A DNA stretch of 33,381 nt from an uncultured Rikenellaceae bacterium (lineage in GTDB: Bacteria > Bacteroidota > Bacteroidia > Bacteroidales > Tenuifilaceae). The stretch is taken from contig CAZLXF010000002.1 of NCBI GenBank assembly GCA_964563065.1, positions 1 to 33,381 on the forward strand, read 5' to 3'. How positions within the stretch are numbered: position 1 is the first letter of the stretch; each line of letters opens with the position of its first letter. Shown in pieces: positions 4,826 to 18,486 of the stretch. The position numbers and the translations under genes were made by a program. The notes under the pieces were generated by a model. The model searched no databases. It had not been told where the DNA came from and saw only the letters and a list, made by a program, of their open reading frames with translations.

Positions 4826-5665
4826 ATGATAATTACAGATCAGGATCTTCAATACTTTGTTAGTGCTCTTAAAAATTCTTCTAAGTACGACTTTAGCGAG
4901 TACTCCGACAAGTCGCTAAAGCGTAGGCTGCAGAAGGTTTTAGAAGATTTTAATCTTGATATCACGGGACTTATCTCGGCTCTTCGTAACGACAGTGACT
5001 TTTCAGAGAAAATTGTTAAAGAAATTACCGTAAACACCACCGAACTGTTTCGTGACCCACAGGTTTGGCACACGCTACGTTCACGAATTCTACCTCGTTT
5101 CAAGAACAACAAAACCATTAACATTTGGCATGCTGGGTGCTCAACTGGCCAGGAGGTTTACTCCATGATGATTCTCCTGAACGAGATGGGAATGTTTGAC
5201 AAAGCAAAAATTTTTGCATCGGACCTAAACACCGATGTGCTTGAAGCAGCCAAAAAAGGACTTTACAAATACCGTTTCAACATTGGGTATCTCGATAATT
5301 TCGACAAGGTTATTAAGCAAAACCCGCTAAACTACGAAGAGTTTAACGATGTTCCCTACGAAACCTACTTCGATATCGATAAGGTTAGGGATGCCATAAC
5401 CATGAAAAAGTTTTTAACCGAAAAGCCCATTTTCAGAAAACACGATTTGGTAAAGGATGGGAACCTATTCTTCGCCAAATTCGACCTCATTCTGTGCAGA
5501 AACGTAATAATCTACTTTAACTACTCGTTGCAAAACAAAGTATTTGAACTTTTCCACACAAATCTCTACAACAAAGGGGTTCTGCTGCTTGGGATGCACG
5601 AAACAATACTTGGACCATGGGCTGCAAAGTTCGATAAAATGGGGCAAGCTTACATTAAAAAATAA
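4826..5665 (+). CDS. cheR: CheR-type protein-glutamate O-methyltransferase (motifs intact)
   Basis: The N-terminal helical domain reads YDFSEYSDKSLKRRL...TELFRDPQVW. Motif I is INIWHAGCSTGQEVYS, post-I is ASDLNTDVLEAAKKGLY, and CRNVIIYFN is present. Confidence 0.88.
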   Translation: MIITDQDLQYFVSALKNSSKYDFSEYSDKSLKRRLQKVLEDFNLDITGLISALRNDSDFSEKIVKEITVNTTELFRDPQVWHTLRSRILPRFKNNKTINIWHAGCSTGQEVYSMMILLNEMGMFDKAKIFASDLNTDVLEAAKKGLYKYRFNIGYLDNFDKVIKQNPLNYEEFNDVPYETYFDIDKVRDAITMKKFLTEKPIFRKHDLVKDGNLFFAKFDLILCRNVIIYFNYSLQNKVFELFHTNLYNKGVLLLGMHETILGPWAAKFDKMGQAYIKK

Positions 5666-5690
5666 TTTGGCAGTTTAATTAGTTATAGGC

Positions 5691-8060
5691 ATGAAGTTTT
5701 TAAAAAACATGAGCATAAATCGAAAAATTCAACTGGTTGTTGTTTCCCTGCTGGTTGTTCTCTTTGCTGCTTCTGCCATTGTAGTTTACTCAACTTCCTC
5801 CAAGCAATCAAAAGCCACTGTTGACAAGCAAATGATGCTGTACCTAAACCAACTTGACAACATAATTACACTGATTGAAAGGAATACCGAAACGGGCTTC
5901 AACCACAACGACTACATACAAATTAAACCGTACTTTAGCCAAAACCCATATTTTAAAACTGACTTCCCGTTTCTTATCGATATTTCTGGAAATTATCTGA
6001 TTCATCTATACAAAGAGGGGCAGAAATTCCCTCGCGAGCACCTAAAAGAAATGCTCACAAATCCTGAAAAGAAGGGAGTTATTACCTACGAAGAATACAA
6101 GAATTCGCAACGATATCAAGTTTCTCTCTACTTCAAAAAAATTGAGCCCTACAACTCATTCATTGCGGTTCCAGTAAACCAGCAGGAAACCTCATCTGCT
6201 TTAAGCAAAACCTTACTTCTTCTTATTATTCTAGTAATTGCTAGTTCACTAATATCCTTCTACGTAATACGAATAACCCTAAAACCATTCATGCTAGCAA
6301 TTGCTAAAATTAGCAATAATGTTGCACAACTGTCTAAAGGCCAAATAGCTTCTAAAGTAAGCCATTCGCACAACGACGAAGTAGGGCAAATAACGCAATA
6401 TCTTAACCAACTTATTGACGGAATTCAACGAACAACACACTTTGCGAAGAGCATAGGTAAAAACGAGCTGGATGTTGAGTTTATTCCCCTCAGCGAAAAC
6501 GATGAACTTGGAAACTCGTTGCTCGAATTGAAAAATGGCATGCTAAAAACAGCAAAGGAAAGCGAACAGCGAAAACAACAGGACGAACAACGAAACTGGA
6601 GCACCTCGGGAATTGCCAAGTTTGGCGACATACTACGTCAAAACAACAACAACCTGCAACTGCTTTCCGATAGCGTTATCCAAAACCTTGTAAACTACCT
6701 TGATGCTAACCAAGGGGGCTTGTTCATGCTTAACGAATCTGACAATAACAAACCATTCTTAGAACTCATTTCGGCCTTTGCCTTCAACCGGAAAAAAACC
6801 AAAACAAAAACCATTCTTTTGGGAGAAGGGCTAGTAGGAAATTGTGCTGTTGAAAAGCAATCCATTTACCTAAAAGAGATTCCCGAAGATTACATTGAAA
6901 TAACTTCTGGATTAGGCGATGCGCCTCCACGTTCGCTTTTAATTGTTCCTCTCAAACTTGAAGAAAAATTATTTGGAGTAATTGAGTTGGCCTCGTTTAA
7001 AGAGTTCCAGCCCCACGAAATAGAGTTCGTTGAAATTATTGGAGAAAGCATCGCCTCTACCCTCTCGGCTGTAAAAAACAACATCCGAACAAACGAGCTA
7101 CTAGAGCAATCGCAGCAACAACGCGAAGAAATGGCCGCTCAGGAGGAAGAAATGCGACAGAACATGGAGGAAATGCAGGCCACACAGGAAGAAATGGCTC
7201 GTAAAACCCTCGAAATGGAGGGTATGACTGCTGCCATTAACGAATCGCTCATTTTTGCCGAACTATCCGACGATGGCAACTTCCATATGGCTAATCCTAA
7301 CTTTATTAGCCTCACTGGCTATGGGAAAACAGAAATTGAAAGCAAGCGTATATCCGACTTTCTTCACCCCGAGGAAGCTGCAAACTTCCAAAAAGTATGG
7401 AAAAACATACTTACGGGCGAGCCATTTAAGGGAACTCTCAAGTGGATTAACCATAGCGATGAAGAAATTTATGTGCTAGCAAGTTTAAGTCCTGCCTTCG
7501 ACGAAAGTGGCCGCATTTTTAAAATATTCTTTCTAGGGCAAGATGTTAGCGAATCGAAAAAGCTTGAATTAAAAGCTCAGGCCCAAGCCGAAGAGATTGA
7601 ACAGAGCCTTATGGAGCTGGAAATGGAACAGGAGCTTTCCAAACAACGCGAACAAGAAATGGATGCCTTGCTTCAGGCGCTGGACACAACCTGCCTTGTA
7701 ACACAATTCGATCCGGATGGTCGCATAACATACATCAACAATAAGAATGTGGAAACCCTGGGTGATCCGAAAAGTAAAATCGAAGGGAAATTCCATGCCG
7801 AACTCGACCTACAGGCAAAAAGCAACCCTCAAGGGTACAAACAGTTCTGGGACGATCTGCTCCTTGGCATTCAGAAAATTAGGGAGTTTTCGCTTGATGT
7901 TAGCGGTAAAACTGTGTGGATATCAGAACACTATACTCCCATCAAAAACAAAGAGGGGAAAGTTATTAAAATTATAAATATTGGTATTGATATTTCTGCC
8001 TCAAAAGAAACAGAAAAAAAACTAAGAGAAGCTGTTAACGCTTTAAAGAAGGAGAAGTAA
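5691..8060 (+). CDS. Membrane sensor with no recognisable output domain: TM, extracytoplasmic domain, TM, HAMP, GAF, EE-heptad coiled coil, PAS, coiled coil, PAS
   Basis: Two TM segments (about residues 13-33 and 174-194) flank a region of about 140 aa. A HAMP-like segment follows ([18 protein letters not shown]...[16 protein letters not shown]). The GAF domain contains [15 protein letters not shown]...[21 protein letters not shown]. The coiled coil reads [27 protein letters not shown]. Two PAS-like modules follow. The protein ends without a kinase, MCP-signalling, cyclase or phosphatase domain. Confidence 0.8.
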   Translation: [789 protein letters not shown]

Positions 8061-18029: not shown

Positions 18030-18048
18030 TCAGCGAAATTTAAAGGCT

Positions 18049-18486
18049 ATGAAAAACACATATTTAATTCTACTACTTACATTTTTTCTCTCCGGGGCCT
18101 CATCAATAACCTTTGCTCAATCGGAAGATGATTTAGTTGAAATCTGTGGAATGATTGCACAGGATGCAACCTACCTAAAAGATTTTAAGGTTAGGCTTGA
18201 TGCAGGAAATCCGCCACCAGTTCAACGTTTCTCTGTAATTCTGAAGAAAGGTATTAAGTACAGATTTTCCGTGTGCAACTCAAAGGATTACGAAGGAAAA
18301 GTTGTTCTTCAACTACTCGACAACAATCGCTTGCTAGCAACCACGCACGTTGTTGCCAGTGGTCAGGATTACCCATCAATTGATTATGTTTGTACAAAAA
18401 CTGGAGCTTACCACCTCTTTTTCAACTTTAAGGACGGAAAACCTGGATTGGCTGTGGGGCTACTTTCGCTGGTTGAAACCATATAG
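18049..18486 (+). CDS. Small secreted protein of unknown family
   Basis: The signal peptide is MKNTYLILLLTFFLSGASSITFAQ. The mature domain is beta-rich and about 120 aa, with 3 Cys. It is the last gene before a terminator. Confidence 0.6.
   Translation: MKNTYLILLLTFFLSGASSITFAQSEDDLVEICGMIAQDATYLKDFKVRLDAGNPPPVQRFSVILKKGIKYRFSVCNSKDYEGKVVLQLLDNNRLLATTHVVASGQDYPSIDYVCTKTGAYHLFFNFKDGKPGLAVGLLSLVETI

Follow-up and report, generated by a model that had tools for sequence, protein, structure and literature searches.

A conserved gene cluster of Bacteroidota joins a CheR/CheB pair to a PP2C-SiaB-SiaC switch and an ABC exporter: a candidate signalling-and-export unit

Results

Organization of the cluster

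The subject of this study is a cluster of eleven genes, here called g1 to g11, in the DNA of an uncultured Rikenellaceae bacterium (Tenuifilaceae, Bacteroidales, in the GTDB lineage); the window, that is the whole stretch of DNA that was analysed, is 33,381 nucleotides long (contig CAZLXF010000002.1 of the assembly GCA_964563065.1). The cluster encodes a CheR methyltransferase and a CheB methylesterase together with a second CheR-like protein, three membrane sensors, one of them fused to a PP2C phosphatase, a SiaB-family kinase with a SiaC-family phosphoprotein, and an ABC exporter followed by a lipoprotein and a small secreted protein. This gene composition and the catalytic residues are conserved, and the genes are tightly linked and widely distributed. 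According to the list of open reading frames (ORFs) of the window all eleven lie on the + strand between 4826 and 18486, and their coordinates agree exactly with those of the initial annotation, which had described eleven ORFs of the same strand spaced by 3-56 nt; every gap was reproduced as well, the spacers being 25, 24, 5, 12, 3, 38, 15, 39, 56 and 19 nt in the order from g1 to g11.

The terminator scan found no terminator-like site of the + strand inside any intergenic gap of the cluster, and the 3' end is closed by a strong intrinsic terminator hairpin at about 18505-18540 (+; dG -18.1 kcal/mol, z = -4.9), to which none of 200 shuffled sequences was equal in stability; in the initial annotation no intrinsic terminator of the cluster had been seen until 18508. 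Since the gaps are only 3-56 nt long, no terminator-like site interrupts them and the strong terminator follows at about 18505, it is plausible that the eleven genes form one transcription unit, i.e. a single operon. Rfam detected two tRNAs only in the whole window, so no riboswitch or leader was found 5' of g1. A sigma-70 promoter scan returned 39 sites against 33.8 expected, with a model that does not cover the promoter types of Bacteroidota.

The domains originally assigned to the eleven proteins were all recovered by Pfam, NCBIfam and PDB sequence searches, including the CheR, CheB, SpoIIE and SiaC/DUF1987 families, for which matches to profile hidden Markov models were obtained; the FHA domain of g9 is the exception, as it was seen only as a fold in a structural model.

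Conservation across Bacteroidota

The distribution of the cluster was followed by a scan with a CheB alignment over one genome per species, which gave 585 candidate stretches with a confirmed CheB relative; the best 80 loci, all from distinct species, were kept. The eleven genes were collinear in 31 of the 31 loci that hold them all, which belong to different Bacteroidales species and have median gaps of 6-62 nt, and the window genes recurred on the same strand in every sufficiently long locus. The whole core (CheR, CheR', CheB, TM-GAF, PP2C sensor, SiaB, SiaC, exporter, lipoprotein and secreted protein) was present in at least 54 loci of distinct species; the methylation genes co-occur with the PP2C-SiaB-SiaC-ABC genes in these loci and in Cytophagales, and not in this genome alone. 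While the cluster is constant, the flanking genes vary between the loci. As the gene order recurs in all 31 complete loci, the cluster is not a chance juxtaposition.

Two carriers deserve separate mention. In locus L205 the CheB sequence equals that of Tenuifilum thalassicum, a cultured organism, and the contig has the same eleven genes in the same order. Fulvivirga maritima (Cytophagales) carries a sensor, one CheR, CheB, a GAF protein, a HAMP-GAF-PAS-SpoIIE protein, DUF6272, SiaC, a TerB-ABC protein and proteins of 299 and 143 amino acids (aa), all of which are recognisable homologues of the window proteins.

Conservation of the components, expressed as the mean fraction of sequences identical to the window residue across the loci, was highest for SiaB (0.87) and SiaC (0.83), followed by CheB (0.80), CheR1 (0.77), the exporter (0.73) and the PP2C sensor (0.70); lower values were obtained for g11 (0.58), g10 (0.56), CheR2 (0.52) and the TM-GAF protein (0.34). 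The sensor g2 had been listed among the eleven genes of the circuit and was considered as a core component, which we rejected: it is absent from 27 loci, and because CheR1 directly precedes CheR2 in them, giving a ten-gene form, g2 is accessory. The possibility that the cluster is a mobile or recently acquired island was likewise discarded, because its GC content (0.37-0.44) is similar to that of the remaining window, and it is surrounded by housekeeping genes (rplM, rpsI, rpsB, tsf, pyrH, frr, dxs, a PfkB kinase, a DNA glycosylase and others) with partly conserved flanks.

Two database records fall outside Bacteroidota by name. Both carry a Bacteroidota-type cluster: L069, a Thiohalospira sp. 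record, with 75% CheB identity, and the record of the protein P0191, a Thalassobius/Thalassovita sp., with 50% identity in the N-terminus of the exporter; they are probably mis-binned contigs.

The methylation enzymes

The first gene, g1 (4826-5665, +), encodes a CheR-type protein-glutamate methyltransferase, CheR1 (Pfam CheR, 131 bits, and CheR_N). In the PDB sequence search it matched B. subtilis CheR 5FTW (E=2e-29) with the S-adenosylmethionine (AdoMet) motifs aligned; these are canonical (WHAGCSTGQEVYS, FASDLN and LCRNVIIYF) and about 90-100% conserved in 67 orthologues. The product of g3 (8085-8918, +), CheR2, is a divergent CheR paralogue (Pfam CheR, 71 bits), which could also be aligned to 5FTW. 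It had been listed as a plain CheR paralogue, a description that has to be revised, since its AdoMet site is degenerate: it reads FDSGEDLYS, and SSIS stands where CheR has ASDLN, so that the Asp of the ASD motif, which contacts the AdoMet ribose, is missing. Because the substituted site is the consensus of 75 orthologues (FDSGE[ED]LYS), CheR2 may be a non-catalytic paralogue, perhaps an adaptor. The Fulvivirga cluster has one CheR only, with a canonical AdoMet site.

The CheB methylesterase encoded by g4 (8924-9484, +) consists of the catalytic domain alone (186 aa; CheB_methylest, 166 bits, aa 5-179) and matched 3SFT in the PDB sequence search (E=3.5e-28); Pfam found no REC domain in it. Ser10, His37 and Asp130 were invariant in the alignment A1 and conserved in 77 orthologues, thus both a CheR with an intact AdoMet site and a CheB with its Ser-His-Asp triad are at hand in the cluster. 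Presumably the REC-less CheB is constitutively active, and, since a CheB without REC cannot take phospho-feedback, any feedback on g4 would have to come through the conformation of its substrate.

A different arrangement was seen in the metagenomic locus L084, where an extra, canonical REC-CheB gene and the gene of a hybrid kinase (PAS-HisKA-HATPase-REC) stand in front of the module (2286-5197). Some lineages may therefore couple the methylesterase step to two-component phosphorylation.

It had been claimed that the window lacks an MCP (methyl-accepting chemotaxis protein) signalling domain, CheA, CheW, CheY, GGDEF proteins and sigma factors, and this was borne out: none of CheA, CheW, MCPsignal, CheY/REC, GGDEF or a sigma factor was detected in the 31 window ORFs scanned (all non-nested ones of at least 80 aa). 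HisKA, HATPase_c and Response_reg had no match in the eleven proteins, MCPsignal had none in g2, g5 and g6, and GGDEF was found neither in the window nor in the annotated neighbourhoods.

These results bear on the explanation that g1 and g4 form an ordinary adaptation pair whose clients are canonical MCP/CheA arrays encoded at other loci, and that they only happen to stand beside an unrelated partner switch. We regard this as very improbable. To our knowledge Bacteroidota generally lack flagellar chemotaxis; furthermore CheA, CheW and MCPsignal were absent from the Pfam-annotated neighbourhoods of L081-L084 and L205, and the CheR and CheB genes are fixed between the sensors and the PP2C gene in all 80 loci (median gaps 6-9 nt) as well as in Cytophagales. 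What speaks for it is that CheR and CheB are genuine members of their families, whose catalytic residues are intact, and that REC-less CheB is known in true chemotaxis systems, namely those of class F3 (PMC9239204).

The sensors and their glutamate-rich helix

The largest sensor, g6 (10307-12919, +), is a sensor phosphatase with two transmembrane (TM) helices, GAF, a helix rich in glutamate pairs (EE-heptad helix), two PAS domains and a C-terminal PP2C (SpoIIE) domain according to Pfam, whose segments SGDF, AAVDCTGHGVPGA, DGMDIAL, FFFSDG and IDDVLLIG are conserved in 73 orthologues. The accessory g2 (5691-8060, +) is a receptor of TM-Cache-like-TM-HAMP-GAF-EE-heptad helix-PAS-PAS architecture without a transmitter domain; Pfam supported the Cache-like region weakly, HAMP slightly below the cut-off (24.6 bits), GAF and the two PAS domains. 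The small membrane protein g5 (9497-10303, +) is composed of two TM helices, a charged coiled coil and GAF (GAF_2, 27.3 bits, E=4.5e-6, slightly below the cut-off, while its orthologues match GAF clearly). It is the fastest-evolving member of the cluster, present in all loci at 24-48% identity, and the EE-helix motif had no match in it.

Directly after the GAF domain of both g2 (7098-7220, aa 470-510, +) and g6 (11252-11356, aa 316-350, +) there is a segment with four EE pairs at seven-residue spacing, and the two helices have the core RQNxEEMxATxEE in common. When g2 was examined in 25-aa windows, no other part of the protein was as conserved as the helix (0.93; GAF 0.64-0.79, PAS 0.34-0.52, periplasmic part 0.30-0.45), which is nearly unchanged in 41 orthologues that are otherwise 30-60% identical; in g6 it is conserved at about 0.9 or above at nearly every position. 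Both helix-bearing proteins of Fulvivirga, the sensor and the PP2C protein, retain the core as well. The consensus derived from 201 occurrences is QQQAEE[ML]xAQEEE[ML]RQN[ML]EE[LM]xATQEE, and among the 273 occurrences obtained with a looser anchor the two central EE pairs were Glu in 264-272, while at the second residue of pair 1 Gln was the main alternative (42 Q versus 6 D).

Several of these features resemble those of MCP methylation sites, whose classical pattern is EExxA[S/T] and which may have Gln at the place of a modifiable Glu; the third pair of the helix reads EE[LM]xAT. The EE-heptad helix is accordingly the best candidate methyl-acceptor of g2 and g6, and with it the initial idea of methylation as the means of tuning the GAF/PAS sensors gains a specific candidate site, near-invariant and placed after GAF in both proteins, which the earlier reading did not have.

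The helix is also the mark of a very large family of transmitter-less receptors, to which g2 belongs. An exhaustive search with the GAF-plus-helix region returned 13,446 representative clusters (E<=0.001), in which proteins often contain the region more than once, and the strict motif was present in 133 of the best 150 family matches. Among 49 sampled members GAF was found in 49, PAS in 40 and HAMP in 18, and several had input domains of the Cache, PilJ, CHASE3 or MCP-like PDC type; the 25 families listed for them include no kinase, phosphatase, cyclase or MCP signalling domain. A metagenome scan with the back-translated motif yielded at least 120 loci. Among those listed, eight carried CheR/CheB, six of them in the order receptor, CheR, CheB, and eight carried SiaB, SiaC or SpoIIE; the others had none of these genes within a median of 6.8 kb.

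Could the helix be a purely structural signalling helix, with CheR and CheB modifying another substrate, such as g5, SiaC, the exporter N-terminus or an unlinked protein? Several results count in this direction and hence against methylation of the helix. Compared with the ten-residue MCP site consensus, [ASTG][ASTG]xx[EQ][EQ]xx[ASTG][ASTG], the helix matches only in part, as the upstream small-residue positions are not satisfied. Phmmer with the 62-residue helix of g2 retrieved no MCP from the PDB sequences, only designed helical proteins at E>=0.012, and for this reason we claim a resemblance to MCP sites, not homology. Moreover the central EE pairs are invariant Glu, not mixed E/Q; conservation of this degree could reflect coiled-coil packing, and 112 of the 120 listed motif loci had no CheR/CheB in the available flanks (median 6.8 kb); since most helix-bearing receptors do not stand beside CheR/CheB, the helix could be a mere conserved signalling helix. 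Dispersal of this kind resembles that of MCP genes, which lie mostly away from che operons, and it fits a purely structural helix equally. We nevertheless judge this explanation to be rather improbable, in view of the heptad EE pairs, the EExxAT pattern and the Gln alternative in pair 1, which suit methylation sites, and of the receptor gene being followed immediately by CheR-CheB in six metagenomic loci and in Fulvivirga. The position of the helix after GAF is, furthermore, that of the helix methylated by RsbM in RsbK of B. cereus (PMC4574943).

Some members of the receptor family were found in unusual settings. In L098 (5863-6881) and L104 (52-873) helix-bearing receptors have two or three tandem SiaC paralogues nearby, and SiaB and PP2C were not seen in the available DNA. 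L109, L138 and L143 contain two or three exact matches of the helix motif on one strand, 2.3-2.4 kb apart, and the protein P0361 (1989 aa) has nine matched stretches; these are giant repeated-module receptors or tandem paralogues.

The SiaB/SiaC switch

Downstream of the sensor phosphatase, g7 (12958-13533, +) encodes a SiaB-family protein kinase (DUF6272), identified by NCBIfam SiaB_fam_kinase (177 bits, cut-off 85), Pfam DUF6272 (149 bits) and the match to P. aeruginosa SiaB (6KKO_A, E=7e-13). The SiaC-family phosphoprotein g8 (13549-13932, +) was recognized by Pfam SiaC (145 bits) and by 6KKO_C (E=3.5e-15); its score of 88 is under the cut-off of 150 of the NCBIfam SiaC equivalog model. Thr68 of g8 (codon 13750-13752) is located in the motif FNTASS, which is conserved in 66 orthologues and whose FNTAS aligns to LNTSS of P. 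aeruginosa SiaC. A PP2C phosphatase, a SiaB-family kinase and a SiaC with Thr68 are therefore encoded together.

The exporter and its companions

The longest product of the cluster is that of g9 (13972-17061, +), an ABCG-type half-transporter with a C-terminal extension ending in a hydrophobic helix, in which Pfam detected TerB, ABC_tran (271-422) and ABC2_membrane (569-783), i.e. the nucleotide-binding domain (NBD) precedes the transmembrane domain (TMD); it aligns with ABCG1/ABCG2 through both. In front of the NBD there is a cytoplasmic part made up of the TerB domain (aa 1-155, 13972-14436, +) and an FHA-like beta domain (aa 160-235, 14449-14676, +). An AlphaFold2 model of residues 1-270, built from 44 sequences, had a pLDDT (predicted local distance difference test) of 86.6 and consisted of a helical domain (3-155) and a beta domain (160-235). 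The helical domain matches 2h5n, a P. gingivalis protein with no function assigned, in the Pfam TerB region, and the Foldseek matches of the beta domain in the PDB were nearly all FHA domains (MEK1, Rad53 FHA1, CEP170, EssC, KIF1A).

The FHA assignment has to be read with caution, and the following points weaken the view that this module reads the phosphorylation state of a partner. The fold matches, although their probability is about 0.99 and their target-normalised TM-score reaches 0.58, have E-values of only 0.03-0.3, and Pfam FHA gave no match in residues 139-271 even at E<=10. N209-G210 and S192 are conserved; the canonical phosphothreonine (pThr)-binding Gly-Arg and Ser-x-x-His motifs (the Arg and the His) are not evident. 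Because the fold matches but these motifs are not evident, an FHA-like fold predicted by the model is a fair description, and a pThr reader would be a hypothetical one.

The exporter gene is always followed by g10 (17118-18029, +), a lipoprotein with a signal peptide and an invariant Cys18, and g10 is followed by g11 (18049-18486, +), a small secreted or periplasmic protein with an N-terminal signal sequence, in all complete loci and in the exporter-only loci. Neither g10 nor g11 had a Pfam or NCBIfam family match. The AlphaFold2 model of g10 (pLDDT 81) is a helical bundle with a small beta sheet, which had no match in the PDB above a probability of 0.30 and gives no clue to the substrate.

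The exporter had been named as the likely effector of the circuit, a proposal that retains neighbourhood evidence only. It is conceivable that the signalling module is real while the exporter trio is independent, merely sharing transcript or neighbourhood, and that SiaC acts on a protein encoded elsewhere. The trio of TerB-ABCG exporter, lipoprotein of about 300 aa and protein of about 145 aa indeed occurs without adjacent signalling genes in L082 and L083, which counts against the exporter as effector; in L083 its immediate neighbour on the 5' side is an LPG_synthase_TM gene, a gene that the window has upstream of the cluster, and no gaps within the cluster are wider than g8-g9 and g9-g10 (39 and 56 nt). 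Against this stands the exporter gene following SiaC at a median of 40 nt in the 64 sufficiently long loci, a link that Fulvivirga retains. In L198 the genes of a related unit stand in another order (lipoprotein-like gene, small ORF, ABCG), and SiaB-SiaC, convergent to the unit, stay beside it, so the association of SiaBC with the exporter survives rearrangement. Additionally, g9 has what the model predicts to be a dedicated cytoplasmic regulatory N-terminus, and SiaC of P. aeruginosa works by binding a protein encoded in its own operon (PMC8457831). On balance we consider independence of the exporter unlikely.

Surroundings of the cluster

A tRNA-Asn (GTT; 18600-18674, -) lies directly past the cluster terminator on the opposite strand, and a tRNA-Leu (CAA; 31884-31968, +) farther downstream in the window. 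On the 5' side the ORF 3670-4545 (+; 291 aa) had no Pfam or NCBIfam match; its relatives, at 32-58% identity, stand directly 5' of the cluster in about 28 of the 80 loci, and it is separated from g1 by 280 nt with a terminator-like hairpin at 4679-4698. At the beginning of the window a BlaI/Penicillinase_R-type repressor (114-515, -) is divergent from a TonB_C-domain protein (639-1415, +), a BlaR-like pairing with a TonB C-terminal domain protein in place of the sensor protease. In the region 26330-29690 (-) the gene of a radical SAM/SPASM protein (27585-28607) stands between a 388-aa ORF without a Pfam match (26330-27496) and the gene of an OmpA-family protein (28659-29690). The ORFs of the DNA glycosylase (19828-20469, -) and of a Wzy_C-domain membrane protein (20348-21955, -) overlap by 122 nt, which is probably due to a mechanical start of the downstream gene that was set too long and not to a true overlap.

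Discussion

Comparison with known systems

The nearest precedent is the RsbK-RsbM-RsbY system of B. cereus, in which RsbK, a hybrid kinase of CHASE3-HAMP-GAF type, is methylated by the CheR-type RsbM on a helix after GAF and controls the PP2C phosphatase RsbY and thence the RsbV/RsbW/sigmaB switch (PMC4574943). RsbM has no paired esterase, RsbK-like kinases are distributed in ten phyla (PMC4574943), and a genomic association of CheR with RsbK was recorded earlier (PMC12848376). The two systems are alike in having a CheR-type gene beside a non-MCP HAMP-GAF membrane sensor and a helix directly after GAF, the methylated one in RsbK, and in passing the signal through PP2C into a kinase/phosphoprotein partner switch (PMC4574943, PMC12848376); g1 and g3 adjoin g2 (HAMP-GAF-helix) and are located upstream of g6 (GAF-helix), as in the RsbK-RsbM pairing. 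There are also differences. RsbK is a hybrid histidine kinase and RsbY a separate REC-PP2C protein, whereas in the present cluster sensor and PP2C form one polypeptide, with neither HisKA nor HATPase nor REC; RsbM stands alone, whereas here CheB is always present; and RsbW/RsbV acts on a sigma factor, whereas here SiaB/SiaC come without a sigma factor and are followed by an ABC exporter.

The second half of the cluster resembles SiaABCD of P. aeruginosa, where a membrane PP2C (SiaA), the SiaB kinase and SiaC with Thr68 are encoded in the same order. SiaABCD has its output in the diguanylate cyclase SiaD, while no GGDEF protein is encoded in the window, and it lacks both CheR/CheB and the GAF-helix-PAS input that are present here. 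The exporter, in turn, can be compared with Rv1747 of M. tuberculosis, also an ABC exporter of NBD-then-TMD order with N-terminal cytoplasmic regulatory domain(s) of FHA type, which is regulated by Ser/Thr phosphorylation from PknF, the kinase of the adjacent gene (PMC3138270, PMC5549992). Rv1747 has two FHA domains detectable in sequence and a Hanks-type kinase, whereas g9 appears to have one FHA-like fold that sequence models do not see, with TerB before it, and its neighbour kinase is of SiaB type and would act on SiaC.

Canonical MCP-CheW-CheA pathways have in common with the present system the CheR/CheB pair, Cache/HAMP membrane receptors, a helix of heptad-spaced Glu pairs and a large dispersed receptor family, which is transmitter-less here. 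They differ in that no CheA, CheW, CheY or MCP signalling domain was found here in the window or the examined neighbourhoods, and that a PP2C phosphatase takes the place of candidate transmitter, with a phosphoprotein switch as readout.

A CheR/CheB pair together with a sensor-fused PP2C, a SiaB/SiaC switch and an exporter is seen in none of the RsbK, SiaABCD and Rv1747 systems, and our literature searches returned no description of such a combination; searches on DUF6272 and on Tenuifilum genome descriptions gave nothing relevant. The initial annotation knew of no characterised case of the combination, which is nevertheless less unprecedented than this suggests, because in B. cereus a PP2C partner switch already lies downstream of a non-MCP HAMP-GAF protein, RsbK, that RsbM methylates (PMC4574943). 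The system is akin to the known methylation-modulated PP2C partner switching of the B. cereus type and is new in its combination.

Proposed mechanism

We propose, with moderate confidence, that the cluster is a conserved signalling-and-export unit of Bacteroidota, where a chemotaxis-type adaptation pair, with no CheA in the cluster, tunes a PP2C-SiaB-SiaC switch and the exporter. Signals would be detected by g6, and also by the transmitter-less g2 where it is present, with a probable contribution of the small TM-GAF protein g5. CheR1 would methylate, and the REC-less CheB demethylate, the glutamates of the EE pairs in the post-GAF helix of g6 (and g2), while CheR2 with its degenerate AdoMet site might serve as a non-catalytic adaptor; methylation of the helix would give the sensor an adaptive memory similar to that of chemoreceptors. 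By biasing the GAF-helix-PAS sensor, methylation would set the activity of the fused PP2C, which would remove the phosphate that SiaB places on Thr68 of SiaC. One phospho-form of SiaC would then bind the TerB and FHA-like module of g9 and turn transport on or off, and the lipoprotein g10 and the secreted protein g11 may work with the exporter on the envelope side. We leave the sign of this control open, since in P. aeruginosa it is the unphosphorylated SiaC that is the binding form (PMC8457831), while an FHA-like reader suggests the phosphorylated one.

It has to be weighed against this scheme that we infer all of its biochemical steps from gene content and sequence. The non-chemotactic adaptation circuit suggested in the initial annotation is partly supported: the gene set, its conservation and the candidate helix stand behind it, and methylation and the control of the exporter are still conditional parts of it.

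A broader formulation, to which we would give only tentative credence, is that the cluster represents a class of chemosensory-like pathway in Bacteroidota that had not been recognised before. The sensor-fused PP2C and SiaB/SiaC would in that case replace CheA/CheW/CheY, the thousands of transmitter-less Cache/HAMP-GAF-EE-helix-PAS receptors would be the methyl-accepting equivalents of MCPs and feed the PP2C, CheR/CheB would provide adaptation, and the output would be an envelope exporter and not a motor.

Implications

We found no assigned role in the literature for the CheR and CheB proteins of Bacteroidota, and the cluster offers one, namely the adaptation of a phosphatase-based switch. It also provides a candidate function for a family of receptors without output domain, comprising 13,446 representative clusters and marked by a near-invariant helix of glutamate pairs, and a candidate function for SiaB/SiaC in a phylum where their diguanylate cyclase target is absent from the cluster and the examined neighbourhoods. 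Since the system is carried by cultured organisms whose genomes are complete (Tenuifilum thalassicum, by way of the CheB identity of L205, and Fulvivirga maritima), the key experiments are feasible. If the proposal is true, reversible glutamate methylation as a means of sensory adaptation would have a wider range: beyond kinase-coupled chemoreceptors it would include Ser/Thr-phosphatase partner switches and the post-translational control of an ABC exporter.

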